Source of the DNA: an uncultured Planctomycetia bacterium
GTDB taxonomy: Bacteria; Omnitrophota; Gorgyraeia; 2-02-FULL-51-18
Assembly (NCBI GenBank): GCA_964431835.1
Contig: CAYSKO010000004.1
Location: 71,519-135,518, forward strand
DNA: 64,000 bases
Direction of reading: 5' to 3'
In this document: positions 51,186-64,000 of the stretch, piece by piece
How positions within the stretch are numbered: position 1 is the first letter of the stretch
Layout: each line of letters opens with the position of its first letter
Program-made: the position numbers and the translations under genes
Notes under the pieces: model-generated
Seen by the model: the letters and a program-made list of their open reading frames with translations, nothing else
Told to the model about the DNA's origin: nothing
Databases searched by the model: none

Positions 51186-51599
51186 TCAGTACTGCTCTTC
51201 GTAGCGCTTCATGTCCGCGCGGGACGGGCGCGGAGTCCAGTAAGAAGGAGGCGAGCCTTTGGTACCCATGAAATCTTTGCCCGTCATCCGCGTGATAAGG
51301 CCGATCGGCGTGAGAATGAGATAAAAGAGAGCGCCAAGGAGGACGCGCGTCATGACCCAGCCCATCGCGAGCGCGAGAGCCATCCACGCTTTCTGAACCG
51401 GACGCAGGGCGCGCGGAGCGACGAAGCCGAGGATCGCGAGCGCCGCGCCGGGCCACAGGAAATACGGCGCGTGCGCTTTTCCTTTCCACAGGAAGAAGAC
51501 GCCGAGCGCGAAGAAAACGCCGCCGACCACGTGCCCGAAGGAACGCAGCTCCCGATCGCCGCTTTTGATGGTACGAATGTCGGAAAGGAAGGACATCTT
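51186..51599 (-). CDS. SxtJ-family small membrane protein
   Basis: Its two TM helices and the conserved LILTPIGLITRMTGKDFM...PSYW region match the SxtJ family. It sits directly downstream of a carbamoyltransferase. I used the internal ATG to avoid a 140-nt overlap. Confidence 0.6.
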   Translation of the reverse strand, partial: KMSFLSDIRTIKSGDRELRSFGHVVGGVFFALGVFFLWKGKAHAPYFLWPGAALAILGFVAPRALRPVQKAWMALALAMGWVMTRVLLGALFYLILTPIGLITRMTGKDFMGTKGSPPSYWTPRPSRADMKRYEEQY

Positions 51600-51601
51600 T
51601 T

Positions 51602-53422
51602 TTAATCCAGCTCGAATTGCTTTTGCCAGGCCGCGTCCTTCTCGAGCGGCTTCTGCTTTTTCTTGTCGATCACGTAATTCCCGAGAACGAGATAATCCAT
51701 TTCGGTGCGCATGAAGCAGACGTACGCTTCTTCCGGCGTACAAACCAGCGGCTCGCCGCGGACGTTGAACGACGTGTTCACGATGACGCCGCAGGAATGG
51801 TGCGCGTAGAACTCGGAGAGAAGCGCGTGGTAAAGCGGGTTCGTGTCCTTATCCACCGTCTGGACGCGCGCCGAGAAATCGACGTGCGTGACGGCGGGGA
51901 TCGACGAGCGGACGACGTTCAGCTTCTCGATTCCGAAAAGCGTCTCCTCGACGGCCGTGACCGCGCGGCGCTGGCACTCTTTCACGGGCGCCACGAGCAG
52001 CATGTAAGGGCTGTCGTGCTCGAGATCGAAGTAGTCCCCCACCCTTTCCTTCAAAACGGACGGCGCGAAAGGCCGGAAGCTCTCGCGGTATTTGATTTTG
52101 AGGTTCATCACCGACTGCATCTTCGGCGAACGGGCGTCGCCGATGATCGAGCGGGCGCCGAGCGCGCGCGGCCCGAATTCCATGCGGCCTTGGAACCATC
52201 CGACGACGTTTTCGGCGGCGAGGAGATCCGCCGTCCGACGCGGAAGCTCGGCCGCCGGCACGTGTTCGTGCGGGATCGCGTTCCGAGTGAGGTAGTCTTC
52301 GATCGCGCGGTCGCCGTATTCGGGGCCGAGATAGGAGCCTTTCAGCGTGTCGCGGCGGCCGTCGGCTTTCCGTGGGTTATCCAGGCAATGATGCCAAGCG
52401 AAGAGCGCCGCGCCGAGCGCGCCGCCTGCATCTCCGGCCGCCGGCTGGATCCAGATCTTCTCGAAAGCGCCGTCGCGAAGGACTTTGCCGTTGCCCACGC
52501 AGTTGAGCGCGACGCCGCCGGCGAGACAGAGGTTTTTCATGCCGGTTTCCTTGCGAACGTGGCGCGCCATGCGGAGCATCACTTCCTCGGTCACGTCCTG
52601 CACCGAACGCGCGAGATCCATCTCCCGCTGGGTGAGCTTCGATTCGGGCTTCCGGGGTTCGCCGCCGAAGAGCTTGTGGAAAAGCGGACCGGTCATCGTT
52701 AGGCCCGCGGGGTAATTGAAATATTTCATGTTCAGGCGGAAAGAGCCGTCTTCTTTCAAGTCGATCAGCTCGCGCAGGATAAGATCCTTGAAGCGGGGCT
52801 CGCCATACGGGGCGAGGCCCATCACCTTGTACTCACCGGAATTCACCCGGAATCCCGTGTAATACGTGAACGCCGAATAAAGAAGCCCAAGGGAATGAGG
52901 AAAGCGGATCTCTTTGAGGAGCTCAAGCTTGTTCCCGCGGCCGACCCCGACGCTTGAGGTCGCCCACTCGCCGACACCGTCCATCGTGATGACGGCGGCT
53001 TCCTCGAACGGCGAAGGAAAGAAAGCCGAGGCCGCGTGCGACTCGTGGTGTTCGGTAAAAAGCATGCGGCCTTCCCATCCGCCGAGATCCTCGCGGATCT
53101 GGTCCTTGATCCACAGCTTCTGTTTGATCCACACCGGCATGGCTTTCAGGAAGGAACGGATCCCAAACGGTGCGTACGCGAGGTAGGTTTCGAGGAGACG
53201 CTCGAATTTGAGAAAAGGCTTTTCGTAGAAGACGACGAGATCGACGTCCTTCTTGGATATGCCGCCCGCTTCGAGGCAGTAGTCGATCGCGCGCGCCGGA
53301 AAAGACTGGTCGTGTTTTTTGCGGGTGAAGCGCTCCTCCTGGGCGGCGGCGACGATCTCGCCGTCTCGGACGAGGCAGGCGGCGCTGTCGTGGTAGAACG
53401 CAGAGATTCCAAGGATGTTCAT
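51602..53422 (-). CDS. NodU/CmcH-family carbamoyltransferase
   Basis: MNILGISAFYHDSAACLV N-terminal carbamoyltransferase motif and the YrdC-like C-domain. 606 aa. Confidence 0.9.
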   Translation of the reverse strand: MNILGISAFYHDSAACLVRDGEIVAAAQEERFTRKKHDQSFPARAIDYCLEAGGISKKDVDLVVFYEKPFLKFERLLETYLAYAPFGIRSFLKAMPVWIKQKLWIKDQIREDLGGWEGRMLFTEHHESHAASAFFPSPFEEAAVITMDGVGEWATSSVGVGRGNKLELLKEIRFPHSLGLLYSAFTYYTGFRVNSGEYKVMGLAPYGEPRFKDLILRELIDLKEDGSFRLNMKYFNYPAGLTMTGPLFHKLFGGEPRKPESKLTQREMDLARSVQDVTEEVMLRMARHVRKETGMKNLCLAGGVALNCVGNGKVLRDGAFEKIWIQPAAGDAGGALGAALFAWHHCLDNPRKADGRRDTLKGSYLGPEYGDRAIEDYLTRNAIPHEHVPAAELPRRTADLLAAENVVGWFQGRMEFGPRALGARSIIGDARSPKMQSVMNLKIKYRESFRPFAPSVLKERVGDYFDLEHDSPYMLLVAPVKECQRRAVTAVEETLFGIEKLNVVRSSIPAVTHVDFSARVQTVDKDTNPLYHALLSEFYAHHSCGVIVNTSFNVRGEPLVCTPEEAYVCFMRTEMDYLVLGNYVIDKKKQKPLEKDAAWQKQFELD

Positions 53423-53504
53423 GAGGAATAAACTACCACAAAAAAGAAGAAGGCGTCACCGGGAAGAGACGGCTTCCCCAGCGACGCCTTCGTGTCTTCG
53501 AGCG

Positions 53505-54290
53505 TCAGGCCGCCGCTCGCGGCGAGGCGGGACTCCAGCGAACCGCGTCCGCGCGGTAACGCAGGAGGAGCCAGAAAAAGCGCATGTCGTCGACGAGGTA
53601 GCGCTTCCAAAGCCTCGCCGGCTCCATGAGGAGCCTCCAGAACCACTCGAGGCCCGCTTTTTGCATCCAGCCCGGGGCGCGTTTCACCATGCCGGCGACG
53701 AACTCGAACGTCACGCCAATTCCGAGCGACACGGGAACGCCGAGCGCGTCCTTGTGGCGGTGGATCCATTTTTCCTGTTTGGGGGCGCCGAGGCCGACGA
53801 AAAGGATGTCCGCCCGTGAATCCCGGACCGTCTTCACGATCTTGTCATTTTCGGTCGCGTTCTTCTCGAAGCCCATCGGCGGACAATACGTTCCGGCGAT
53901 CTCAAGACGCGGAAAACGCGTCTTCATCACCTTCGCCGCGCCGTCGGCCGCGCCGGGACGGCCGCCCATAAAGAACACGCGGTAGCCCTTCTCGGCCGCC
54001 AGCGCGCAGACTTCCGGAAAAAGGTCGGACCCGGAGACTTTTTCGCGGAGAGGCGTGCCGATCCATTTCGCCGCCCAGAGGAGCGGCATCCCGTCTGCGA
54101 GGACGAGGCCCGCGCTGTCGTACACACGGCGGAATTCCTCATCGTCCTGTAATTTGACCAAATGGTCCACGTTGGGCGTCACCACCGAGGCGGGCGTCTT
54201 CGCGCGCACGAGCGCGTCGATTTCAAAGACGGCCTCGCCCATCGTGACGTCGTCTATTTCGGTGCCGAGAATGCGGATTCGCTTGGGCAT
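53505..54290 (-). CDS. WecB/TagA/CpsF-family glycosyltransferase (GT26)
   Basis: Family signature PNVDHLV...ADGMPLLWAAK...FFMGG...ILFVGLGAPKQEKW. Internal ATG start. Confidence 0.85.
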   Translation of the reverse strand: MPKRIRILGTEIDDVTMGEAVFEIDALVRAKTPASVVTPNVDHLVKLQDDEEFRRVYDSAGLVLADGMPLLWAAKWIGTPLREKVSGSDLFPEVCALAAEKGYRVFFMGGRPGAADGAAKVMKTRFPRLEIAGTYCPPMGFEKNATENDKIVKTVRDSRADILFVGLGAPKQEKWIHRHKDALGVPVSLGIGVTFEFVAGMVKRAPGWMQKAGLEWFWRLLMEPARLWKRYLVDDMRFFWLLLRYRADAVRWSPASPRAAA

Positions 54291-54310
54291 CGCTTCCAGT
54301 TCCCCTTTCG

Positions 54311-56428
54311 TCAGTTTTTGAGTTTGATGCGGTACACGGAACCCGCGTACCGCGAGATATAAAGATGGGCGCCGTCCCTCGAGAAAGCCATCGCGGCCGC
54401 GCCGGCCCCATTCGGAAGGTCGGAGGTGATGTCGTTCCAGCTCCGGCCGGCGTCTTCGCTGAGGAAAATGCGACCGCCCGTCGAACCGTCCCACTTCACG
54501 GCGGTCACCGCGACGCGTTCGGGATTATTCGGATCGATAGTGATCGCCTCGCACGAGCCGGTTCCTTCGAATTGCTTAAGGAGCGTCCAGTTCGCGCCGA
54601 AATCGGACGAGAAATAGACCGCGGGGCCGCCCGAGTCAGTCGCGGCGTAGACCTTACCGTCGCTCGAGACCGCCAGGTCGAAAACCCAGCCCGTGGCCGA
54701 GAACACCTTCGTCCAGGTGAGACCGCGGTTCTCAGACCGGTAAATACCACCGTTGGCGCTCGTCCCGGCCGTTCCCCAGTAAATGCGGTTCGGATTCGCC
54801 GGGTCGACGGCGAGGCCGTTATAGACGCGCAGCGAGCCGGGTTGGCCGTCTGGACGCGTCCACGAATAGCCGCCATCGGTCGAAAAGAAGAATCCGCCGC
54901 CGTCGTCGCCGTCGATGCCGAGATAAAAACGTTTCGGATCGGAGGGGTCGACGGCGAGCGCGCGGGCGTATCCTTTATCCCAGACCGTGTTCACCTTCGG
55001 GTACGTGAGCGGAAGGCCGGTGCGCGTCTTCTTGAACGCGACGCCGCCGTCCTCGCTGATGAGCACCTGGTTGGAGGTGACGTCCCACGGAGAACTCGTC
55101 GCGACCACGTGTTTGCCGAGCGGGCCGGCGGCGATCACGCGCCAAACATGGCCCTTCACGCTGTTGTCGACGGTGTCGACGGGGCACAGCGACTTGTAGC
55201 TTACGCCGCCGTCCGAGGATTTCATGAGACCGTTGTCCATCGTGGCGACGAGGATCGCGCCGTCCGGCGCGACGGTGATGTCGGATCCCACGGTGTTCGC
55301 CGCGCCCTTGATCCGCTCAACCCAGCTTTCGCCGTTGTCGTCCGAGCGCCAAACGCCCCAAAAATCGGTGAAGTAGAGCGTATTCGCCTCGAATGGATCG
55401 AACGAGACCGAGAGCGGCCAGCCGAAGCCTTGCGCCCACACGCGAGTCGGGTTGAGAAGGACGTCGTGCGAAAGGTTCTTTTCAATGTCTTTCCAGGTCT
55501 TCCCGGTATCAGGGCTCAGATACACCCCGCCGCCCCAGCCGTCGCGCCAGGCAGCGAGAAGCTTCGTCGTGCCGGCGCGGTCGCTCCGCACGGAGATGCG
55601 GTTGACGTGCGCGGTCTCCGAAGAACTGGGGATTGGCTCGGAATACTGCCACGTCGCGCCGTTGTCGGAGCTCCAGCCCACCCGTTTCTCGGCCGTGATG
55701 AAAAGCGTTTCCTTCCAGAGATAGGAGACCATGTCGAGGACCCGCGTCCCCTTCGCGACGTCGAGCCGCATCCACGCCCCGGCCGGGCCAGCCGAGAGGT
55801 CGTAGCGGATGAGGCCGAAGGTCGAGCCCGCGAAAAGCCAGCGGCCGTCGCGCGTCAGGTGAAGCGCGCTGATGGGCGTGGGCTGACCGAACGGATTCGG
55901 TGCGGCGCCCAGACGCGCGAACGACTCGCCTCCGTCGTTCGTAAACCAGACCTGACCGTCCTTCGTGCCCGCGTAAACCTTGTTGTGGTCGAGCTTGTCG
56001 ATCGCGATCGAGCGGTAATTGTCGGGGCGGCGGAAAAGAACTTTGTCTTTCGTTGAAGCGAGGTAGCGCCACGTCATCCCGGCATCGTCCGACCGCAGCA
56101 TACCGGTCTTCGTGCCGATGTAGAGCACGTTCGAGTTCGACTTCGCGACCGCGAGCGCCACGACGTGGAGCGTCGTGAGCCCCTGATTGCGGAACATCCA
56201 GACGCCGCCGCGCGTGTCGCTTCGCCAGACGCCCGAGACGTCCGAAATGAGATATACGCGGCCGTAGACGTTTCCATCCAGCACGACGCCCGGATACGCG
56301 CCGCCGCCGCACCATCCGGCGAATTCCCACTTGAGCATGGTATTGATCGCGCCCGCCGCGCGCGGAAGAGGATCCAGGAAAGCGAAGACGGCTGCTGCGA
56401 GGACGAGCGCTGTGCGAAGCTTTTTCAT
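54311..56428 (-). CDS. Secreted BNR/Asp-box repeat protein (about 12 SxDxGxTW repeats; twin beta-propeller, GH74/sialidase-like)
   Basis: Signal peptide MKKLRTALVLAAAVFA. Repeats include SDDAGMTW, TNDGGESF, SSDNGATW, SPDTGKTW, SDDNGESW, STDGGYSW, SSDFGANW and SEDAGRSW. Internal start with an ATGA overlap to the upstream GT2. Confidence 0.8.
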   Translation of the reverse strand: MKKLRTALVLAAAVFAFLDPLPRAAGAINTMLKWEFAGWCGGGAYPGVVLDGNVYGRVYLISDVSGVWRSDTRGGVWMFRNQGLTTLHVVALAVAKSNSNVLYIGTKTGMLRSDDAGMTWRYLASTKDKVLFRRPDNYRSIAIDKLDHNKVYAGTKDGQVWFTNDGGESFARLGAAPNPFGQPTPISALHLTRDGRWLFAGSTFGLIRYDLSAGPAGAWMRLDVAKGTRVLDMVSYLWKETLFITAEKRVGWSSDNGATWQYSEPIPSSSETAHVNRISVRSDRAGTTKLLAAWRDGWGGGVYLSPDTGKTWKDIEKNLSHDVLLNPTRVWAQGFGWPLSVSFDPFEANTLYFTDFWGVWRSDDNGESWVERIKGAANTVGSDITVAPDGAILVATMDNGLMKSSDGGVSYKSLCPVDTVDNSVKGHVWRVIAAGPLGKHVVATSSPWDVTSNQVLISEDGGVAFKKTRTGLPLTYPKVNTVWDKGYARALAVDPSDPKRFYLGIDGDDGGGFFFSTDGGYSWTRPDGQPGSLRVYNGLAVDPANPNRIYWGTAGTSANGGIYRSENRGLTWTKVFSATGWVFDLAVSSDGKVYAATDSGGPAVYFSSDFGANWTLLKQFEGTGSCEAITIDPNNPERVAVTAVKWDGSTGGRIFLSEDAGRSWNDITSDLPNGAGAAAMAFSRDGAHLYISRYAGSVYRIKLKN

Positions 56429-57396
56429 CGGGCGGCGCCTCCGGGGGTAGGGTTCGAAACGGGATGGGAAAAAGAAGGCCCGGCGGGAACCGCGCGCGCG
56501 GGCTCGAAACCGTCCCGCGAGAGCGCCGCCTTGGCGAATCCGGCCGCCCAGGCGCCGAGACCGAGCAGAAACGCCGGGAGCGAGCCAAGGAAAGCCGTGA
56601 AATAGGCGGGTTTCGCGAAAAGAATGCGTGCGGCGATGCGCGCGAACTTGGCGCCGAGGAAAAGCGGAAGCAGGAGCGTCGCGGCCAGCGGAGAGTACAG
56701 CGCAGAACGCGAACGCATGCGCCGGTACACGAGAACGTAGCGGCCAAGCAGCACCTGGTTTTTCAGGAATGCGCCCCACTCCTCGCGGAAAATATGGTAA
56801 ACCTTCGCGTCCGGAACGAACCAGAACGGCGTACGTGCGGAGACCTTGAGGCCGAAGAGCACGTCCTCGGACGCGCGGATCTCCGGAAAGCCGCCGACCT
56901 CGCGAAAGAGCGCTGTTTCGCAGTAGAGGTTGCAGGACGGGGCGAACGGCTTCGTTTTGGGCCCGCCGGCGTCCATGAATTCGTTGAATTGGAGGAAATA
57001 CTGCGCCCAGGCGATCGCCTTGCTTTTCTGAAAATACGGTAGCGCAATCGAGCCGCCGCCGACGCGGCGTCCGGCGCCGGCGTGCGCCGCGATTCGCTCG
57101 AGGCAGTCGTTGGCCATGAACGCGTCGGAGTCCACGAAAACCAGAAGATCGCCGGCCGCCTCGCGCGCGCCGATGTTGCGACCGACGGCCGGCATGACCC
57201 TCTCGCCCGCACGGATGACCCGCACCTTCCCGCCCTCTCGGGCGGCCAGGAAAGCGGGCGTGACGCCGTCGGTCGAGGAGTCGACCACGATCGCCTCGCA
57301 GAGAAGATCTTCGCGCGTCTGAAGCTTCAACGCGTCGAGCGTTTTGCCGATCGTTTTGTGCGAATTAAACGACGGGACGACGACGGAGATGCGCAT
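56425..57396 (-). CDS. Family-2 glycosyltransferase with C-terminal membrane segments
   Basis: VVVPSFN...VVDSSTD...VFVDSDA GT-A DxD region. Confidence 0.85.
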   Translation of the reverse strand: MRISVVVPSFNSHKTIGKTLDALKLQTREDLLCEAIVVDSSTDGVTPAFLAAREGGKVRVIRAGERVMPAVGRNIGAREAAGDLLVFVDSDAFMANDCLERIAAHAGAGRRVGGGSIALPYFQKSKAIAWAQYFLQFNEFMDAGGPKTKPFAPSCNLYCETALFREVGGFPEIRASEDVLFGLKVSARTPFWFVPDAKVYHIFREEWGAFLKNQVLLGRYVLVYRRMRSRSALYSPLAATLLLPLFLGAKFARIAARILFAKPAYFTAFLGSLPAFLLGLGAWAAGFAKAALSRDGFEPARAVPAGPSFSHPVSNPTPGGAAR

Positions 57397-58783
57397 GGGG
57401 GCTGGCCTGTTGGGGTTGGGGACTACGGGGGTTGAGGACCGCGTGGAAACGCATGGCCTTGAGCATGACGCCGATCAGGAACCAGAAATACCAGTTGAGC
57501 GCGAGGTAGTAGAACATGTTGTCCGCGACCGAGCTCAAGAGATACGTGATCACGTACGAGAGGACGACCGCGTATTCCGCCGAGAGCTTCGGCAGGCCCG
57601 CTCGCACGCGCGAAAAGAACGCGCGGATGATGCCGATATAGATCGCGACGTACGCGAGAAGCCCCGCGATGCCGGTCTCGAAGAGGATCTGCACGTAGGT
57701 ATTGTGCGCGTCCACCCCGACCTTGCGCTCGAGCAGGAAGAAGCTGCGGGAATACTGGCTGAACGTCGAAAGACCGTAACCGAAGAAAAAGCGCTCTTTG
57801 ATCCACGGCATCGCGCTTTTCCAGAGCTCCACGCGCCATTCTAACGAGTTCATGCGCTGAGAAGAACCACCGCCGAGATCCCCGGCGCGGTCCGCAATCT
57901 GAGGCAGCGCCATGCCTGCCACGACCGCCAGGAGCGAGATGACGAGATACTTCCTCTCTTTGATGAGCCCGTAGATGAAGAAAAGAAGCCAGCATGAGAT
58001 CCAGGCGTTGCGCGTCTTCGTTCCCAGGAGAAGAAAGAAGAGGTTCGCCATGTAGAGCAGGATCACGGCTTTCCTCCAGCCCGTCACGCGGAAATGCGCG
58101 GACTTCAGGATATAGAAGAAGAGCGCGATCGCGAAGACGAGATAGAACGCGAGGATGTTCGGATGCGTGAACGTGCCCAGGATGCGGCTGCCCGCGTCCT
58201 CGAACGTGCGGCCGCCACGCACGAGATCCACGTTGGCGAAGATCACCGGCAGGACGGATGACCAGGCAAGGACCTTGATCCAGCGCTTTTTGTCGTTCAC
58301 GTGGGAATCGATCAGGAACGGCAAAAGCGCCATGCAAAGATAGCTCGTCAGATTGAAGAAAAACCGGATCGCCGTAAACGGCGCCGGCGAATAGAACACG
58401 GCGACAAGGCACACCACCAGGAACGGCAGCCAGCTCTTGAAAAGACGGTTGTTGCGAAGTTCGCCGATGTGACGGAAACCAAGCGCGAACGTGAGCATGA
58501 GGACGAAGAGGTTCAGAACCGCGCCGAACCCGAGCCCGCCGCTTTCCCCTTTTGTCATATTGAGCACCGGGTCGAGCAGCGCACGGGAGAAAAGGATCAG
58601 CGTAACCATGAGCCGGATGTCCAGCGCGACGATGAGGAAAAGAAGGCAGACGAACGGAAGCGCGAAAAGGAATACCGGCTTCTCTATCGCCATCGGCAAG
58701 ATTTTAATGAGGCCGAGGCCGAGCGCACCCCCGAAAACCAGGGCGGCCCAGACGTTCAGCCTATGCGCGGGCGAGCTCAGCAT
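57365..58783 (-). CDS. O-antigen ligase/Wzy-family polytopic membrane protein
   Basis: About 12 TM helices and a large periplasmic loop carrying the Wzy_C-type HNTYVQILFETG motif. Start chosen at an internal Met. Confidence 0.7.
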   Translation of the reverse strand: MLSSPAHRLNVWAALVFGGALGLGLIKILPMAIEKPVFLFALPFVCLLFLIVALDIRLMVTLILFSRALLDPVLNMTKGESGGLGFGAVLNLFVLMLTFALGFRHIGELRNNRLFKSWLPFLVVCLVAVFYSPAPFTAIRFFFNLTSYLCMALLPFLIDSHVNDKKRWIKVLAWSSVLPVIFANVDLVRGGRTFEDAGSRILGTFTHPNILAFYLVFAIALFFYILKSAHFRVTGWRKAVILLYMANLFFLLLGTKTRNAWISCWLLFFIYGLIKERKYLVISLLAVVAGMALPQIADRAGDLGGGSSQRMNSLEWRVELWKSAMPWIKERFFFGYGLSTFSQYSRSFFLLERKVGVDAHNTYVQILFETGIAGLLAYVAIYIGIIRAFFSRVRAGLPKLSAEYAVVLSYVITYLLSSVADNMFYYLALNWYFWFLIGVMLKAMRFHAVLNPRSPQPQQASPHAHLRRRPVV

Positions 58784-59903
58784 ACACGCTCTCCTTTTGT
58801 TTGGCGACGACACGGATGTCGAAACGGTCGCGGCAGGTTTCGTAGCCGCGCCGTCCGACACGGACGCGCAAGGCCTCGTCCTCGAGGAGCCGCGTGACGG
58901 CTGAAGCCCAGCCCGCGGCCGAAAACGGATCGAGGAGGACGCCGCTTTCCCAGTCGGCGAGAAATTCGTCGTTGCAGCCCACACCGGAAGAAACGACCAC
59001 CGGCACCGCCATGCTCATGGCCTCGAGGATCGAAATGGAGTGCAGTTCGAGGAAAGACGGCAGGAGGAAAACGTCGGCGAACGCCAGGAGCTTCATCGGA
59101 TCGGGATGAAAACCAATGAAACGGACCCCCTCTTCGAGCCCTTCGCGGCGGACCCGGGCTTTCAGGTCTTCGAAAAGCGGGCCGTCTCCTGAGATCACAA
59201 ACACGGCGTTCGGCACGCGCTTTAGAACCTCCGGCGCGACGTCCAAGATCAGCTCCACGTTCTTTTCGGGCGCCATGCGGCAGGTCGTAAGGATGACACG
59301 CGCGTTCTCGGGAAGCCCCAGAGCGCGCTTGGCGGAGGGGTCCGGCGTACGCTCGCGCATCGGGATGCCGTTTTGGATCTCCACGATGCGGGGCGCCGCG
59401 CACAGGCCGTTCCGGACTAGATACTCGCGGTTCTGGCGCGTGAGTACGATCACGCGGTCCGAGAAGCCTTTTAGGTATTTGACGTAGCTGTACTGCGCGT
59501 TCTCACCGCGGCGGCGGCGGAACTCCTCTGGGTCGAGATAGCGGAAATCATGCACGTGCTCGACCACCTTCGCGCCGGCGAGCTTCGCTGCGAGCGTTCC
59601 CCAGACGTGGGAGTTGAAGTTGTGGGTGTGGACGATTTGGATCCTGTTCCGCCGGATGTACCGCGCCAGGCGCCAGACGATCCCGAGCGTGGCAGCGCTT
59701 TTGACCCGGTGGCTTTTCTCCGCGTACTTGAAAAGACGGACGCCGCCCTCACGGAAGCGCTGCTCGATCTCCCCACCGTAGGAGAAACCGACGTGGATCT
59801 CGAAGCGCTCGGGATCGGTGGCGCGCACGAGGTTGAACAGGTTCGTCTCGGCGCCGCCCAGGCTGAGCGTCTTAATGAGATGAAGGACGCGTATCTTATC
59901 CAT
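58761..59903 (-). CDS. Family-4 (GT-B) glycosyltransferase
   Basis: N-terminal LSLGGAETN and the C-terminal EGFG-like region of GT4 enzymes. Internal start MDKIRVLH. Confidence 0.85.
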
Positions 59904-60483
59904 AGGAGCCGGTCCTTTTCGTGGCGAAGCGAATCGGAGCGGCGTTGCCGTCGCGCATCTTGAGAACTTTCGCGGGAACTCCGCCCACGATCGCGTAAGC
60001 CGGCACGTACCCGACGACCACGGAGCCGGCGGCGACGATCGCGCCGTCACCGATCCGAACGCCCTTGACGATCGTTGCCTTCGCGCCGATCCAGACGTTA
60101 TTGCCGACCTCGATCGGCTTCGAGACGTATCCTTGCTCGCGAATCAGGACGTTCACGTCGTCCGCGCGGTGGTCGTGGTCGTAAAAATGCACCGAGTCCG
60201 CTATGAGACAGTCGTCGCCGATCGTCACTCGCTCGAAGCAGACGACTTTCACGTTCTTGTTGAAGTAATTACGGTCCCCCACCTCGAACAAGCCGCCTTT
60301 GACGTCGACGTCGTAGCCGCGCTGGAACACATTGCCCTGACCGAGGCGCATGCGGCCGCCGCCGTGCAGGATCAGCTTGCCGAACCAGAGGTAATTGCGA
60401 CCCTCGGACCGGAGCTTCCCTAGGAATTGAAGACAGAGAGACCAGTGGACGAACTGCGCGACGATCCGCATCCATCTACTCAT
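59896..60483 (-). CDS. Hexapeptide-repeat O-acetyltransferase (left-handed beta-helix)
   Basis: [18 protein letters not shown]...[31 protein letters not shown] hexapeptide repeats. Internal start with an ATGA overlap to the GT2. Confidence 0.8.
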
Positions 60484-61412
60484 GCACGGCTCCTCCCGAG
60501 AATCATCGAGAAGGTGGAGCCGACACTCGCCATTAGCTTGTCGAATTTCACGGCCTTGCGGTTGAAGAGGAATTCCAGAAGGTCGATCAGCATGAGACCG
60601 AAGAGCGAATAGGCGAACAGGAACTTTGCGACCGGACCGTTCCCTTTGTATTTCTTGAACAGATGGTGGAAGTTCCTCATTTCCATCTGCTTGAGCTCGG
60701 CCTGGTTCAGACGGTTCGAAGTCGAGTAGTTGTGGTGCAGCTTCGCGTCGGGGATCATGACCGCGTTCGATCCGCGTGCGATCCTGTAGGAGAAATCTGC
60801 GTCTTCGCGGAAGCTGTAGCCGGTGAACCATTCGTCGAATTTTTCGTCGCCGATCGAAGTGCGCCGGTAGTTCATGTTGCAGCCGGGCAGAAACTCTACT
60901 TGGATCCTCCGGTCGATTTCGCGCTCGTAGATCGGATACCCAAAGCCCGAGAGCGTCATACGGCCGTCGAAGTTCGAAATCAGGAAAAGCCGCATAATGG
61001 CCTTCCGAAGCGCCCATTTGAGACCGGAGGACTTGTCTTTCACGAACGTGTTGCCGCTCACCGCGCCGAGGGCGGAATCCGCCTCGAAGCACGCGACGAC
61101 TTTTTCGAAATAGTCCGGATAGAGCACGATGTCATCGTCGAGGAAGCTCACGATGTCGCCTTCGACGAGTGAAAGCCCGCGGTTGCGCGCCTTCACGAGG
61201 CTCTTCTCCTCCTGCTCGAAGTAGCGGAAACGCGACGGGCACTGGGGATTCGCGAGTTTCGTCTCGGAAACCACGATCTTCGACTCATTGTTCGTGCTCT
61301 GGTCGACGATGATGATCTCGTACGGCGGACGAGTCTGGATCATCAGCGAGTCGAGCGCCTTTTTGAGATCCGCCGCTCTGTTCATCGTAGGGATGACGAC
61401 GCTGACTTTCAT
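60480..61412 (-). CDS. Family-2 glycosyltransferase
   Basis: VVIPTMNRA...IIVDQST...SFLDDD motifs. Confidence 0.85.
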
Positions 61413-62356
61413 CGGCTGTTCCTTTCGTAGGAGTTTGACATGGAAGAATCAAGACGTTCAACGGGCTCAACGGAAGGATTCATCCTCAGGTATTCACGGC
61501 ACCCTTCGAGATAGCCCAGCCGCGACACGCGCATCAGATAACGGAAATAGGATTCCTTGCCGCCGCCGGCCCGCCACCGCAAGAGCCACGACGACGAGGC
61601 TAGGCGCGTCAATGCGATTTTGCCCGCCAGTACGGCGCGGCTCTGGGCCGGAACGCTCTGGAAGCGTCCGGAGTATTTGTGGTTTAAAAGGCAGGCGCCG
61701 ATCACGTTCTTATGGCTCTGAAGATAGAGGCCTCGCGGCGAGGAGCGGTGATGATGGAAGACGGTCGCGTCCTCGGCGTACGTGAGCCTGAACGAACCGT
61801 CGAGCTGCATCCGCCAGGAAAAATCCGCGTCTCCGCCGGAGACCCATCCGGCTTCGAAAAGACCCGCCGCTTCGAAGACGCAGCGCTTGTAGAAGGCGTT
61901 CGCGGTCTGCGCGTACGGAAGGTACGGGTGCTTGAATGCGGCGCTCTGCGAGAGCATGCCTACGGATACCTGGAATTCCTCGACGAGCGAGCGCGGCTCG
62001 AGCGCGCGGATCGAACCGGCCGCACCGTCCGCCGCCACGAGCCAGCGCACGCCGTTCTTTACCCAGTCACGGTCGACGATGCAGTCCGCGTCCGTGAAAG
62101 CGAATATCTCTCCCGACGCGGCCCGAATCGCGGCGTTCCGAGCGGCGTAGGATCCCCGGCGTGCTTTTTCCTCGATGACGCGGATCGAAGGAAAACGCCG
62201 GACGATCGACGCCGAATCGTCGGTCGAACCGTTGTCCACGAAGAGGATCTCTAGGCGGTCGTTCGGGTAATCGAGCGCGGCGATCGATTCCGCGCACGCC
62301 CGGATCGTGGAGGCACCGTTGTAGAACGGCACGACGACGGTAACGAAAGGATTCAT
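61409..62356 (-). CDS. Family-2 glycosyltransferase
   Basis: VVVPFYNGA...LFVDNGSTD...AFTDAD motifs. Confidence 0.85.
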   Translation of the reverse strand: MNPFVTVVVPFYNGASTIRACAESIAALDYPNDRLEILFVDNGSTDDSASIVRRFPSIRVIEEKARRGSYAARNAAIRAASGEIFAFTDADCIVDRDWVKNGVRWLVAADGAAGSIRALEPRSLVEEFQVSVGMLSQSAAFKHPYLPYAQTANAFYKRCVFEAAGLFEAGWVSGGDADFSWRMQLDGSFRLTYAEDATVFHHHRSSPRGLYLQSHKNVIGACLLNHKYSGRFQSVPAQSRAVLAGKIALTRLASSSWLLRWRAGGGKESYFRYLMRVSRLGYLEGCREYLRMNPSVEPVERLDSSMSNSYERNSR

Positions 62357-63588
62357 CGCGGGGCCTTTTCCGGGGCGGCGCCGTTCAGCACGCCCTCGAT
62401 CAACGCTTGGTGGGTTTCGAGCATCTCTTTTTTTCGGGAGATGAGGGACCGTCTCAGATCCTCGCGCTCGGCGAAGGTGCGAGCGAGGAGCGACGCCAAG
62501 TCGGCGAGCTCGTCGAGCGGTAGAACACGGTCCTCAAAACCGAACTTCTGGAAAAGCCCGTGGATCTTTCGGAGATAGTATTCGTTTTGGTAGAAACCCA
62601 CCGTGGGTACCCCCGCCGAGAGCGCGAAAACGAGGCTGTGAAGACGCATGCCCGCGAAGAGGTCGAGCCGGCTGATGAGGTAGTACGTCTGCTCGACCGA
62701 AAGCTTCTCGGTGACGACCTCGTAGTCAAGAGCAGGAGACAGATGCCGCGCCAGCTCCCGACCCTCGTCGCGGTCGTCGCAGTGGCCGCTCGTCTCCATC
62801 GGGACGAAGAGCACCCGAACGCGCCCACCTTCGAGCGAGGTGACGAAGATCTCAATCGCCTCGGCGATACGCGCGTAATAGTTTCTCGAACCGTCCCAAT
62901 CGCGCAGATTCACGCCCAGATGAACGACGCCTTCGCCTTCCGAGAAGTAGCGGTCGACGGCGCCGCGTTCGGAAGCCGCGAGCCGGGGCTCGAAAGCCAC
63001 CGCGTCGTCGATGCCGTGAAGCACCTTGGCGCCGAAAGACGCCACTTCCTGGGTCGAATGCGTTTCGCGAAGCACGATCTTATCCGCGGCTTCGAATATC
63101 TCGCGGGCCATTTGCGCGTGGTGGGGCTTCCGGAACGGTCCGAGGGTTTGGCCGAGAAGGTACAGCGGCTTGCCGTTCGCGACGGCGGCCGAGGCGATGA
63201 GGTTCATCTCGGGGAGGTTGTAATCGCTGTTCAGGTACCCCCCGCCAACGAGGATCGCCTTGTCGAAGCCGGCGAGCGCCTCTCGGACGCGTTTGTTGCG
63301 GAGGGACAGGGCGAGGGCCAAGCGCTTCGAGAACGGGAAGAAATCGATGTAAAGTTTGGTCAGAAGGCGCGCGGAGAAGGACTTCCCCTTCAGCCACGCG
63401 AGCGGGTTCCAGCAGAACACCTGATGACGCACGCCGCGGTCGAACTGGATTGAGAAAGCCGGGTCATCCGCCCAAACGAGGAACTCCGCGTGCGGAAACA
63501 GGCGGTCGAGACGGGAAACGGTCGCCTTCAGGATCGCTTCGTCGCCGGGATTCCCCCCGGAATAACCTCCGACTAAAAGAATCTTCAT
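62353..63588 (-). CDS. Polysaccharide pyruvyl transferase (CsaB/WcaK family)
   Basis: PS_pyruv_trans-like start MKILLVGGYSGGNPGDEAI and an internal GG motif. ATG at 63588 with ATGA overlaps on both sides. Confidence 0.75.
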   Translation of the reverse strand: MKILLVGGYSGGNPGDEAILKATVSRLDRLFPHAEFLVWADDPAFSIQFDRGVRHQVFCWNPLAWLKGKSFSARLLTKLYIDFFPFSKRLALALSLRNKRVREALAGFDKAILVGGGYLNSDYNLPEMNLIASAAVANGKPLYLLGQTLGPFRKPHHAQMAREIFEAADKIVLRETHSTQEVASFGAKVLHGIDDAVAFEPRLAASERGAVDRYFSEGEGVVHLGVNLRDWDGSRNYYARIAEAIEIFVTSLEGGRVRVLFVPMETSGHCDDRDEGRELARHLSPALDYEVVTEKLSVEQTYYLISRLDLFAGMRLHSLVFALSAGVPTVGFYQNEYYLRKIHGLFQKFGFEDRVLPLDELADLASLLARTFAEREDLRRSLISRKKEMLETHQALIEGVLNGAAPEKAPR

Positions 63589-64000
63589 ATGCCGGCCCTC
63601 AAGGGGGTCGTCTTGTGAGAGGCGACCTCGAGCTCGTGAAGGCGTTTGGCGAGCGCGCGGACGGGCCGCACCGCTTTTCCCGCGGCCGAACGAAGATCGC
63701 TGAGAGCCGCGTAGCTTTTTTGGATGGCCGGGTTCAGCGGCTTGCGGATGCGCGTGAAGCCGGCGAACCACCGGAAGAATTCCTTGGAGCCGTACAAGTC
63801 TTCGAGGCTCTCCGTGTCGAGCGCGTCCTGGATCGACCGCCAGAAATCGAGCGTCCCTTCGCTGCGAAACAGCGAGTAGTAGCCCAGCGTCATGCGGCGC
63901 TTCAGCTCCGGCAGCGTGCGGGCGTCCATGTTGAAGTTGCATTCCGCGGGGTCGACGTTGTTCACGAGAAGCTCGCAGATGGTGCGTAGGCACTTTTCGC
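63585..64000 (-). CDS. Partial CDS (C-terminal part) of unknown function, continues beyond window end
   Basis: The reading frame is open to the window edge. Its stop overlaps the pyruvyl-transferase start as ATGA, so it belongs to the same operon. Confidence 0.4.
   Translation of the reverse strand, partial: EKCLRTICELLVNNVDPAECNFNMDARTLPELKRRMTLGYYSLFRSEGTLDFWRSIQDALDTESLEDLYGSKEFFRWFAGFTRIRKPLNPAIQKSYAALSDLRSAAGKAVRPVRALAKRLHELEVASHKTTPLRAGI

Follow-up and report, generated by a model that had tools for sequence, protein, structure and literature searches.

Do twelve adjoining genes on one strand make a single decorated polysaccharide, or do two separate pathways meet there? The question is raised by positions 51186 to 64000 of a 64,000-nt stretch of DNA from an uncultured bacterium of the Omnitrophota (contig CAYSKO010000004.1; the whole stretch is called here the window), where a small SxtJ-like membrane protein and a carbamoyltransferase are encoded beside a set of glycosyltransferases, decorating enzymes and a gene (here gene 12) that leaves the window at its end. 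A previous reading of the sequence alone had assigned all twelve genes to one locus for a carbamoylated, O-acetylated and pyruvylated glycan. The analysis described here leads us to think it likely that there are instead two independent units: an island for a secreted or capsular polysaccharide made by the Wzx/Wzy-dependent route, and a separate carbamoyltransferase cassette.

Probable separation of the carbamoyltransferase pair from the polysaccharide island

The remainder of the island was found, by way of the encoded pyruvyl transferase sequence, on the public JGI contig Ga0163151_10000275 (L001), which matches the window without a single difference along the 11,648 bases that the two share. 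In the order of transcription L001 encodes a beta-barrel protein, a priming transferase, an OPX protein, a chain-length regulator, GalE, a flippase and the full gene 12. The sequence-only reading had noted a further gene running off the window and neither a flippase nor a chain-length regulator within it, and had supposed that the locus continues past position 64000. This proved to be so: wzx, wzz-type and wza-type genes and the rest of gene 12 are present on L001, and homologues of the flippase, chain-length regulator, exporter and priming transferase were not found elsewhere in the 64-kb window. Ahead of the island on L001 are CoA-binding and PP2C genes unrelated to it, and the 110-nt gap before the first island gene, that for the beta-barrel, contains a near-consensus sigma-70-type promoter (TTGACT-17 nt-TATAAT, L001 1144-1172, virtual window coordinate ~72,417-72,445).

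At the other end, the 82-nt gap between the gene for the GT26 glycosyltransferase and that for the carbamoyltransferase houses an intrinsic-terminator-like element, with a 17-bp stem (including three G-U pairs) and a 9-nt loop followed by UUCUUUUUUG. Its RNA fold has an energy of -35.9 kcal/mol (z = -4.69), and none of 200 shuffled sequences folded as well. A promoter and terminator scanner reported nothing in this gap, but its loop limit is 8 nt, against the 9 nt of the loop present. The near-consensus promoter before the beta-barrel gene and the terminator after the GT26 gene together give the island its own promoter and its own terminator. Measured from beta-barrel gene to terminator it spans 19,061 bp, that is, positions 53440-64000 of the window and about 8.5 kb beyond. 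The idea that it might be a mobile element was rejected for want of evidence: its GC content of 0.609 matches that of the flanks, and no repeats of at least 8 nt were found at its junctions.

Comparison with two other contigs bears directly on whether the carbamoyltransferase and SxtJ genes belong to this unit. The contig of the closest relative of the carbamoyltransferase (80% identity), L089, has the gene order Thiamine_BP, PP2C, CoA-binding, carbamoyltransferase, SxtJ, YggS, ProC, YggT, IleS, DksA, LspA, Lgt, RluD, AroA. All of these but Thiamine_BP are collinear with the window and L001, at 51-80% identity. L089 lacks the 19,061-bp island, and its carbamoyltransferase-SxtJ pair stands at the same position in the backbone. 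It follows that the island sits between the CoA-binding gene and the carbamoyltransferase gene, and that the pair belongs to the backbone. On L006, a related island comprises orthologues of 11 island genes at 33-68% identity, encoding the BNR-repeat protein, gene 12, the pyruvyl transferase, Wzx, two GT2 enzymes, the beta-barrel (next to the OPX gene), OPX, the chain-length regulator (PCP), Wzy and GT4. Identities to the window proteins are 51% for the GT2 enzyme of 60480..61412, 49% for Wzy and 51% for the BNR protein, and those to the L001 proteins are 42% for the beta-barrel and 45% for the flippase. Neither a carbamoyltransferase nor an SxtJ gene was found within 10 kb of the L006 island.

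The pair also has a wide distribution of its own. Carbamoyltransferase homologues 70-80% identical over their full length occur in Omnitrophica, Nitrospirae, Brocadia, Acidobacteria, Deferribacteres and Levybacteria, and copies at 61-71% identity were collected from 80 representative genomes of many phyla, among them Paceibacterota, Bryobacterales, Planctomycetes, cyanobacteria and a Rickettsiaceae metagenome-assembled genome (MAG). An SxtJ gene lies directly downstream in 75 of these 80 loci as judged by clustering of flanking open reading frames (ORFs), or in 64-66 as judged by tblastn; a 52-aa DUF5989/SxtK-like protein follows SxtJ in 52, in agreement with a Pfam check, and a GDSL-like protein is encoded in 19. 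Homologues of island genes were rare near the cassette, with GT26 in two loci, Wzy in two and GT4 in six, and homologues of the pyruvyl transferase, gene 12 and the BNR protein were found near it in none of the 80. The cassette in the window is one copy of a widespread, very conserved module, and part of the backbone.

The alternative favoured by the sequence-only reading is that all twelve genes and their continuation form one locus, in which the repeat unit that is acetylated and pyruvylated would also be O-carbamoylated by the carbamoyltransferase, with help from SxtJ at the membrane. The genes do share a strand, with only 82 nt between GT26 and carbamoyltransferase, and the enzyme is an intact O-carbamoyltransferase of the TobZ/NovN type. 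Carbamoylated envelope glycans are also known, as in the lipopolysaccharide (LPS) core of Pseudomonas, whose 7-O-carbamoyl heptose is attributed to WapO (PMC8005017), and in one genome, described below, the cassette is embedded among glycosyltransferases. These points have to be set against the strong terminator in that same gap, the presence of the cassette without the island in the collinear L089, and the related island of L006 without the cassette within 10 kb. The neighbours of the cassette vary from genome to genome, and the identity of the enzyme across phyla (61-80%) is far above what is seen in enzymes fitted to variable polysaccharides; when the window is compared with L089, the carbamoyltransferase (80% identical) is even more conserved than IleS (69%). 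We accordingly regard a single locus as decidedly improbable. Because of the terminator, the island-free L089, the L006 island lacking the pair, and the autonomous cassette, the carbamoyltransferase is placed outside the island, and the membership of the pair in it is not supported. The same evidence, down to the neighbourhoods of the cassette in 80 genomes, speaks against the earlier claim that the glycan is carbamoylated: action of the enzyme on the polymer of this island finds no support in the genomic evidence, and the prediction should be dropped unless chemistry shows otherwise.

Several observations weigh against so clean a division. All the genes are on one strand, and terminators can leak, so that some read-through into the carbamoyltransferase gene is possible. 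It is possible, too, that the enzyme acts on the island polymer in trans despite its genomic independence. L089 and L006 are single contigs, and the missing partner could lie elsewhere in those genomes. When a wider set of queries was used, a glycosyltransferase-type gene was found within 10 kb of the cassette in 27 of the 80 loci, which makes a glycan substrate plausible, although this figure has no background rate and is not evidence of enrichment. Finally, an Omnitrophica genome (GCA_016197155.1; L090 1-21818) carries the cassette inside a cluster resembling those for LPS core and O-antigen, where carbamoyltransferase, SxtJ and DUF5989 genes lie among four genes of the GT9 heptosyltransferase type, GT2, GT4, PMT_2 and Bac_transf genes, and a Wzy_C gene. 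The case nevertheless illustrates that a tailoring enzyme cannot be attributed to a glycan locus merely because its gene is a neighbour on the same strand.

What the cassette modifies can be approached through its proteins and its surroundings. The carbamoyltransferase aligns end to end with the solved carbamoyltransferase 7xb6 (8e-97), with conserved HHxxH, DG.GE and GDxG segments, and has at full length both the Kae1-like N-terminal and the YrdC-like C-terminal domain; to judge from these features it is an intact O-carbamoyltransferase of the TobZ/NovN/GdmN type. The NCBIfam equivalog for NodU was not reached (133 bits against a cut-off of 1000). The SxtJ protein encoded directly downstream scores 55.9 bits against a Pfam cut-off of 24.4 (PF19588). 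A motif search found no SxtK/DUF5989 gene in the window or L001, and the 71-nt gap between SxtJ and yggS is too short for one. No consistent acceptor emerged from the context of the cassette in the 80 loci. Our best guess, prompted by the precedent of SxtI, SxtJ and SxtK in saxitoxin biosynthesis and by the context in L090, which recalls that of WapO, is an envelope glycan or a lipid-linked sugar.

A more specific proposal is that the cassette acts on the LPS core, or on some other conserved glycolipid of the envelope, and adjoins the island by chance. This fits its position in L090 among four GT9 genes, PMT_2, Bac_transf and a Wzy_C ligase-type gene, as well as the GT9 homologues near it in five of the 80 loci, and there is the precedent of WapO (PMC8005017). 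SxtJ and DUF5989, as small membrane proteins, would suit a membrane-associated substrate. Yet near-identical cassettes occur in MAGs of Paceibacterota and other Patescibacteria, and most of the 80 loci have no glycan genes nearby. Patescibacteria are not expected to make LPS, and the presence of the cassette in them argues against LPS as the only substrate. We consider the proposal possible, while leaning against it.

Directly upstream of the carbamoyltransferase ATG, about 22 nt are conserved between the window (53423-53445) and L089 (8876-8900), reading TTTGTGGTAGwkTATyCCyC-ATG. No Shine-Dalgarno sequence is present in this segment. There is a weak indication that it may be the carbamoyltransferase's own promoter, giving a leaderless or near-leaderless transcript.

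Composition and proposed working of the island

The features of the window segment and of its continuation are collected in Table 1. The twelve contiguous minus-strand genes were established from the listing of ORFs and by inspection of start sites, and independent gene calls on the identical L001 agree with them; Pfam supports every domain assignment in the window genes with strong E-values. Four-nucleotide overlaps occur at five junctions (56425, 60480, 61409, 62353 and 63585), and there are longer overlaps of 8 nt (59896-59903), 23 nt (58761-58783) and 32 nt (57365-57396). Gaps of 20 nt separate the BNR and GT26 genes, and of 5 nt the carbamoyltransferase and SxtJ genes. The left border of the gene run is real, since yggS, proC and ileS come next after SxtJ. 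As a description, then, the sequence-only reading was accurate in every detail that could be checked: the number, strand and place of the genes, their frequent 4-nt overlaps, the domain names, and the secreted twin-propeller BNR protein.

The strand bias extends well beyond this segment. All of the roughly 58 predicted genes of the window (1-64000) and of L001 1-9588 lie on the minus strand, and the plus strand has a GC skew above 0 in 27 of 32 2-kb bins and never below -0.011. The coding strand is thus C-rich over at least 73 kb, and the combination of strand bias and skew is unusual. The named sequences closest to the IleS of the window, 53-68% identical to it, belong almost without exception to Candidatus Omnitrophica/Omnitrophota, and the DNA is accordingly likely to stem from a high-GC representative of this uncultivated phylum.

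Table 1. Features of the window segment and of its continuation on contig L001, with the supporting evidence
Feature	Position	Strand	Evidence
SxtJ-family small membrane protein, 136 aa, about three hydrophobic helices	51186..51596	-	Pfam SxtJ 7.8e-15
NodU/CmcH/TobZ-family carbamoyltransferase, 606 aa	51602..53422	-	Carbam_trans_N 1.5e-103, Carbam_trans_C 9.5e-73
Intrinsic-terminator-like element, 3' end of island	53440..53491	-	RNA fold
GT26 (WecG/TagA/CpsF family), 261 aa, last island gene	53505..54290	-	Pfam Glyco_tran_WecG 2e-66
Secreted twin beta-propeller protein, GH74 fold (predicted), 705 aa	54311..56428	-	Pfam Sortilin-Vps10/BNR 3.6e-29
GT2, 323 aa	56425..57396	-	Pfam Glycos_transf_2 1.2e-20
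Wzy-type polymerase (putative), 472 aa, multi-pass membrane protein	57365..58783	-	Pfam Wzy_C 3.5e-21
GT4, 380 aa	58761..59903	-	Pfam Glycos_transf_1 8.9e-35, Glyco_transf_4 3.5e-19
Left-handed beta-helix (hexapeptide, LbH) acetyltransferase, 195 aa	59896..60483	-	Pfam Hexapep 2.4e-11
GT2, 310 aa	60480..61412	-	Pfam Glycos_transf_2 6e-24
GT2, 315 aa	61409..62356	-	Pfam Glycos_transf_2 1.4e-28
Polysaccharide pyruvyl transferase, 411 aa	62353..63588	-	Pfam PS_pyruv_trans 8.2e-34
Gene 12, C-terminal 137 codons of 433-aa protein, start beyond window; first island gene seen	63585..64000	-	
Gene 12, full, 433 aa	L001 8703-10004		
Wzx-type flippase, 538 aa	L001 6966-8582		Pfam Polysacc_synt_3
GalE	L001		TIGR01179 1.2e-128, above cut-off
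Chain-length regulator (PCP) with tyrosine-kinase-like domain	L001 4262-5992		Wzz (weak); TIGR01007 127 bits vs cut-off 108
OPX (Wza-type), 216 aa	L001 3601-4251		Poly_export + SLBB
Priming glycosylphosphotransferase	L001 2566-3552		Pfam Bac_transf; TIGR03025 EPS_sugtrans 6.1e-113, 378 bits vs cut-off 296
Outer-membrane beta-barrel, 380 aa	L001, two genes upstream of OPX		Pfam BBP2_2 weak; TIGR03016 2e-21, below cut-off

Between them these genes supply the parts of a Wzx/Wzy pathway: a priming transferase, a flippase, a Wzy-type polymerase, and a chain-length regulator with an OPX protein, although for the Wzy_C gene product polymerase and ligase are indistinguishable by sequence. The Poly_export and SLBB domains cover residues 52-216 of the OPX protein, which fits a short OPX, and the beta-barrel protein gives weak matches to PEP-CTERM-associated and EpsL-type models. 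In the chain-length regulator the signature of a BY-kinase (Walker A GxxxxGK[ST] and a C-terminal tyrosine cluster) was not found: the Walker A position reads RAEGAST, with no lysine, and the C-terminus has a single Tyr. Because both the lysine and the cluster are missing, the kinase domain is probably a pseudokinase.

Among the remaining enzymes, GT26 scores 223 bits against a Pfam cut-off of 27 and 155 against 69 for the superfamily model TIGR00696; its best NCBIfam equivalog is Myxococcus EpsA (2e-64, below the cut-off). The LbH acetyltransferase scores best, though below cut-off in every case, with the NCBIfam models for WbbJ-like, maltose and WcaF O-acetyltransferases. The pyruvyl transferase matches Pfam PF04230 with 118 bits (cut-off 25.3) over 277 of 280 model positions, and fails to reach the NCBIfam equivalogs for CsaB (90.6 against 213) and WcaK (81 against 399, and 74 against 727). 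The label "CsaB/WcaK-type" that it had been given therefore holds for the superfamily and not for the equivalog, and by its scores the enzyme is neither a CsaB nor a WcaK orthologue. The earlier identification of a polysaccharide locus with an acetyl- and a pyruvyl-transferase is sustained by these matches, and the decorations that the sequence supports are O-acetyl, from a WbbJ/WcaF-like LbH enzyme, and a pyruvate ketal, from a PF04230 enzyme. The predicted chemistry needs correcting to an acetylated and pyruvylated polymer, carbamoylation being unsupported. With that change the finding as originally written alters little, and describes a standard type of exopolysaccharide (EPS) locus in an uncultivated lineage.

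GT26 and the pyruvyl transferase in one island also bring to mind a cell-wall-bound product, either an O-antigen or the pyruvylated ManNAc secondary cell wall polymer (of the TagA plus CsaB type) that anchors SLH-domain proteins. CsaB is indeed the best-scoring NCBIfam model for the pyruvyl transferase, and the Wzy_C domain is common to O-antigen ligases. But 90.6 bits is far from the CsaB cut-off of 213, the TarA/WecG equivalogs likewise stay below theirs, and the priming enzyme belongs to the hexose-1-phosphate EPS type, unlike WecA/TagO. GT26 itself also includes glucosyltransferases, for example GumM. An OPX protein, a chain-length regulator and an outer-membrane barrel of its own typify secreted or capsular polymers (PMC9601211), and a cell-wall-bound polymer seems to us highly improbable.

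For the secreted or capsular polysaccharide that we prefer, the following scheme can be proposed. The priming transferase, of the hexose-1-phosphate type, would start a lipid-linked repeat unit, which GT26, the three GT2 enzymes and GT4 would extend; one priming and five further glycosyltransferases would allow up to about six sugars, and GalE would supply a 4-epimerised UDP-sugar. The unit would be decorated by the LbH acetyltransferase and the pyruvyl transferase, flipped by Wzx, and polymerised by Wzy together with the chain-length regulator and its inactive-looking kinase domain. Export would be through the short periplasmic Wza-type protein and the beta-barrel, followed by trimming or processing of the polymer by the secreted GH74-fold protein. 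Transcription of the island would end at the terminator after GT26.

The GH74-fold protein and the gene 12 family

The N-terminus of the BNR protein resembles a signal peptide, and there is a 4-nt overlap between its gene and the GT2 gene before it. An AlphaFold (AF2) model built from 41 homologues (pLDDT 93.8, pTM 0.91) has two seven-bladed beta-propellers predicted to form a cleft, as in GH74 enzymes, and the top 25 Foldseek matches in the PDB are all GH74 xyloglucanases (TM 0.72-0.76, E 1e-27 to 1e-32). A profile of the family matches GH74 chains with E-values of up to 1e-40; identity in sequence to GH74 is only 17-20%. D63, which hardly varies within the family, is matched in the alignment by the Asp of ARADIGG in 2cn2 and by Ala in the mutant 2cn3; it is this substitution that reveals D63 as the counterpart of the catalytic Asp in the Clostridium thermocellum enzyme. 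D398 (in MDNG) is invariant and aligns to GDQG of 6p2m, a segment that we take to hold the second catalytic Asp. The alignments suggest that at least the first catalytic Asp is kept. Since GH74 enzymes cut substituted beta-1,4-glucans, it is tempting to speculate that the polymer has a branched beta-glucan backbone. By analogy with glycanases encoded in other polysaccharide clusters, such as ExoK (PMC1403797), the protein is probably a processing glycanase for the polymer.

On L006 (7932-12462) the genes for the GH74-fold protein, the gene 12 homologue and the pyruvyl transferase follow directly upon one another and overlap. This arrangement suggests that the three proteins act on the same structural feature of the polymer.

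Gene 12, which overlaps the pyruvyl transferase gene by 4 nt, gave no match in Pfam, in NCBIfam or in a direct sequence search of the PDB, and its family comprises 165 homologues, all of them unnamed. The family has the consensus LFSGGLDS with an invariant Asp (the window copy reads SSGLDS), and an invariant C-x8-C-x2-C-x2-C cluster formed here by C284, C293, C296 and C299. In the AF2 model (pLDDT 96.4) the SGGxDS-type loop lies after a beta-strand. No significant full-length fold match was obtained in the PDB (Foldseek best E 0.04); the best of the weak matches are PP-loop enzymes, namely carbapenam synthetase, asparagine synthetase B, GMP synthase and TtuA. Of 60 members, 16 give sub-threshold Pfam matches to QueC (best E 0.003), which map to the C-terminal, Cys-rich end of its model; other matches below threshold involve DUF6395 and, in Asn_synthase, the PP-loop part; profile matches in the PDB are to asparagine synthetase and QatC (E 0.45-0.9). 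That an assignment to the PP-loop/QueC group rests on motifs and on sequence and fold matches below threshold must be counted against it.

The association of the family with pyruvyl transferases is seen most directly in a 735-aa fusion protein (P0077, L004 3314-5521), in which an N-terminal gene 12 family part, containing AFSGGVDS and NCGRCEKCLRT, is joined to a C-terminal PS_pyruv_trans domain. The two genes adjoin each other in L001 and L006, and are one gene apart in L007. Among 38 informative metagenomic loci, defined by at least 1.3 kb on both sides of the gene 12 homologue, 26 contain a PF04230 gene, directly adjacent in 20 and nearly always on the same strand; the count was made after removal of the fusion protein, which had merged both families in clustering, and the neighbouring pyruvyl transferases fall into three sequence clusters, confirmed as PF04230. 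A tblastn search found a pyruvyl transferase near only five of 80 gene 12 homologues, an undercount, because tblastn cannot cope with a family so diverse. Distant homologues in Rhodococcus, and others beside genes for a polyketide synthase (PKS) and a non-ribosomal peptide synthetase (NRPS), are not in polysaccharide loci, so that the association does not extend to the whole superfamily and the wider family is not restricted to glycans. In one such case (L008 10001-11377) a homologue with 33% identity overlaps the end of an NRPS gene that follows a PKS gene.

Gene 12 probably encodes a further modifying enzyme. More speculatively, it may carry out an additional ATP-dependent modification linked to pyruvylation, and PP-loop chemistry would allow it to activate a carboxylate, either that of the pyruvate ketal itself or that of a uronate, for conversion into an amide. 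Within the literature library that was searched, no paper links pyruvyl transferases with PP-loop proteins. One may go further and suppose that gene 12 founds an undescribed PP-loop/QueC-like family that amidates or otherwise derivatises the pyruvate-ketal or uronate carboxylate, a new glycan decoration, while the cassette separately modifies a conserved envelope component; taken as a whole this seems to us unlikely. An unannotated family that is confidently modelled and linked to pyruvyl transferases is, all the same, a testable lead to a new glycan-modifying activity.

Comparison with known systems

The closest functional analogues of the island are the succinoglycan (exo) cluster of Sinorhizobium meliloti and the EPS pathway of Myxococcus. 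With the former it shares a functional parts list: ExoY for priming, ExoT and ExoQ as Wzx/Wzy-type proteins, ExoP as a chain-length regulator with a kinase domain, ExoB as UDP-glucose 4-epimerase, several glycosyltransferases, ExoZ and ExoV as acetyl- and pyruvyl-transferases, and the endoglycanase ExoK (PMC1403797). Three different non-sugar decorating enzymes in one locus, which the sequence-only reading had thought unusual, are no rarity in this light, the exo cluster having acetyl, succinyl and pyruvyl transferases (PMC1403797). The third decoration is succinyl there (ExoH), whereas gene 12 is the candidate for it here; and the island glycanase has a predicted GH74 fold, whereas ExoK resembles secreted endo-beta-1,3-1,4-glucanases. 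The OPX protein of the exo cluster is ExoF; in the island, by contrast, a putative short OPX protein would be paired with a candidate beta-barrel, and, also unlike in the exo cluster, the kinase domain of the chain-length regulator has no Walker A lysine.

The EPS system of Myxococcus xanthus is likewise Wzx/Wzy-dependent, with a short OPX encoded together with an outer-membrane beta-barrel, an arrangement that the short exporter of the island, its gene two places after that of the predicted barrel, would match. A short, periplasmic-only OPX encoded with a beta-barrel is an established translocon, EpsY/EpsX in Myxococcus, and is found widely (PMC9601211, PMC9603273, PMC7484181); a tyrosine pseudokinase, EcpK, is also known in the Myxococcus EPS system (PMC12004946). 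The best NCBIfam equivalogs for several island proteins are Myxococcus EpsZ, EpsA, EpsD and EpsY, all below cut-off, and the island proteins are therefore analogues or distant homologues of the Eps proteins and not orthologues. The Myxococcus Eps models that score here include no counterpart of the pyruvyl transferase, gene 12 or the GH74-fold protein, a comparison made with the models and not with the Myxococcus locus itself.

For gene 12 the nearest likeness is to QueC and the PP-loop pyrophosphatases (asparagine synthetase B, carbapenam synthetase, TtuA), in the SGGxDS-type loop and the Cys cluster. It differs from QueC in having twice the size, with extra N- and C-terminal domains, in reaching no family threshold, and in its genomic partner, a pyruvyl transferase in place of queuosine genes.

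For the carbamoyltransferase two precedents can be named. WapO (PA5005) of Pseudomonas, a putative carbamoyltransferase of LPS-core heptose belonging to the NodU/CmcH family (PMC8005017), offers O-carbamoylation of an envelope glycan and so the best precedent for the carbamoylation that was first proposed. Compared by context, the two differ: WapO is encoded inside a core-oligosaccharide cluster, the window enzyme outside the island and behind a terminator. The second is the saxitoxin cluster, in which sxtI-sxtJ-sxtK(-sxtL) begins with the same order as the cassette, carbamoyltransferase followed by SxtJ (PF19588), and where SxtI with SxtJ and SxtK has been proposed to carbamoylate decarbamoyl-saxitoxin (PMC2679770). 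The cassettes of most other genomes go on with a DUF5989/SxtK-like and sometimes a GDSL-like gene, mirroring sxtI-J-K-L, whereas the window has no SxtK/DUF5989 gene and none of the other sxt genes. Many of the phyla that have the cassette are without known saxitoxin production, so the ancestral substrate of the cassette must have been a different one; familiar until now chiefly through saxitoxin clusters, the cassette emerges as a very conserved module found in many phyla.

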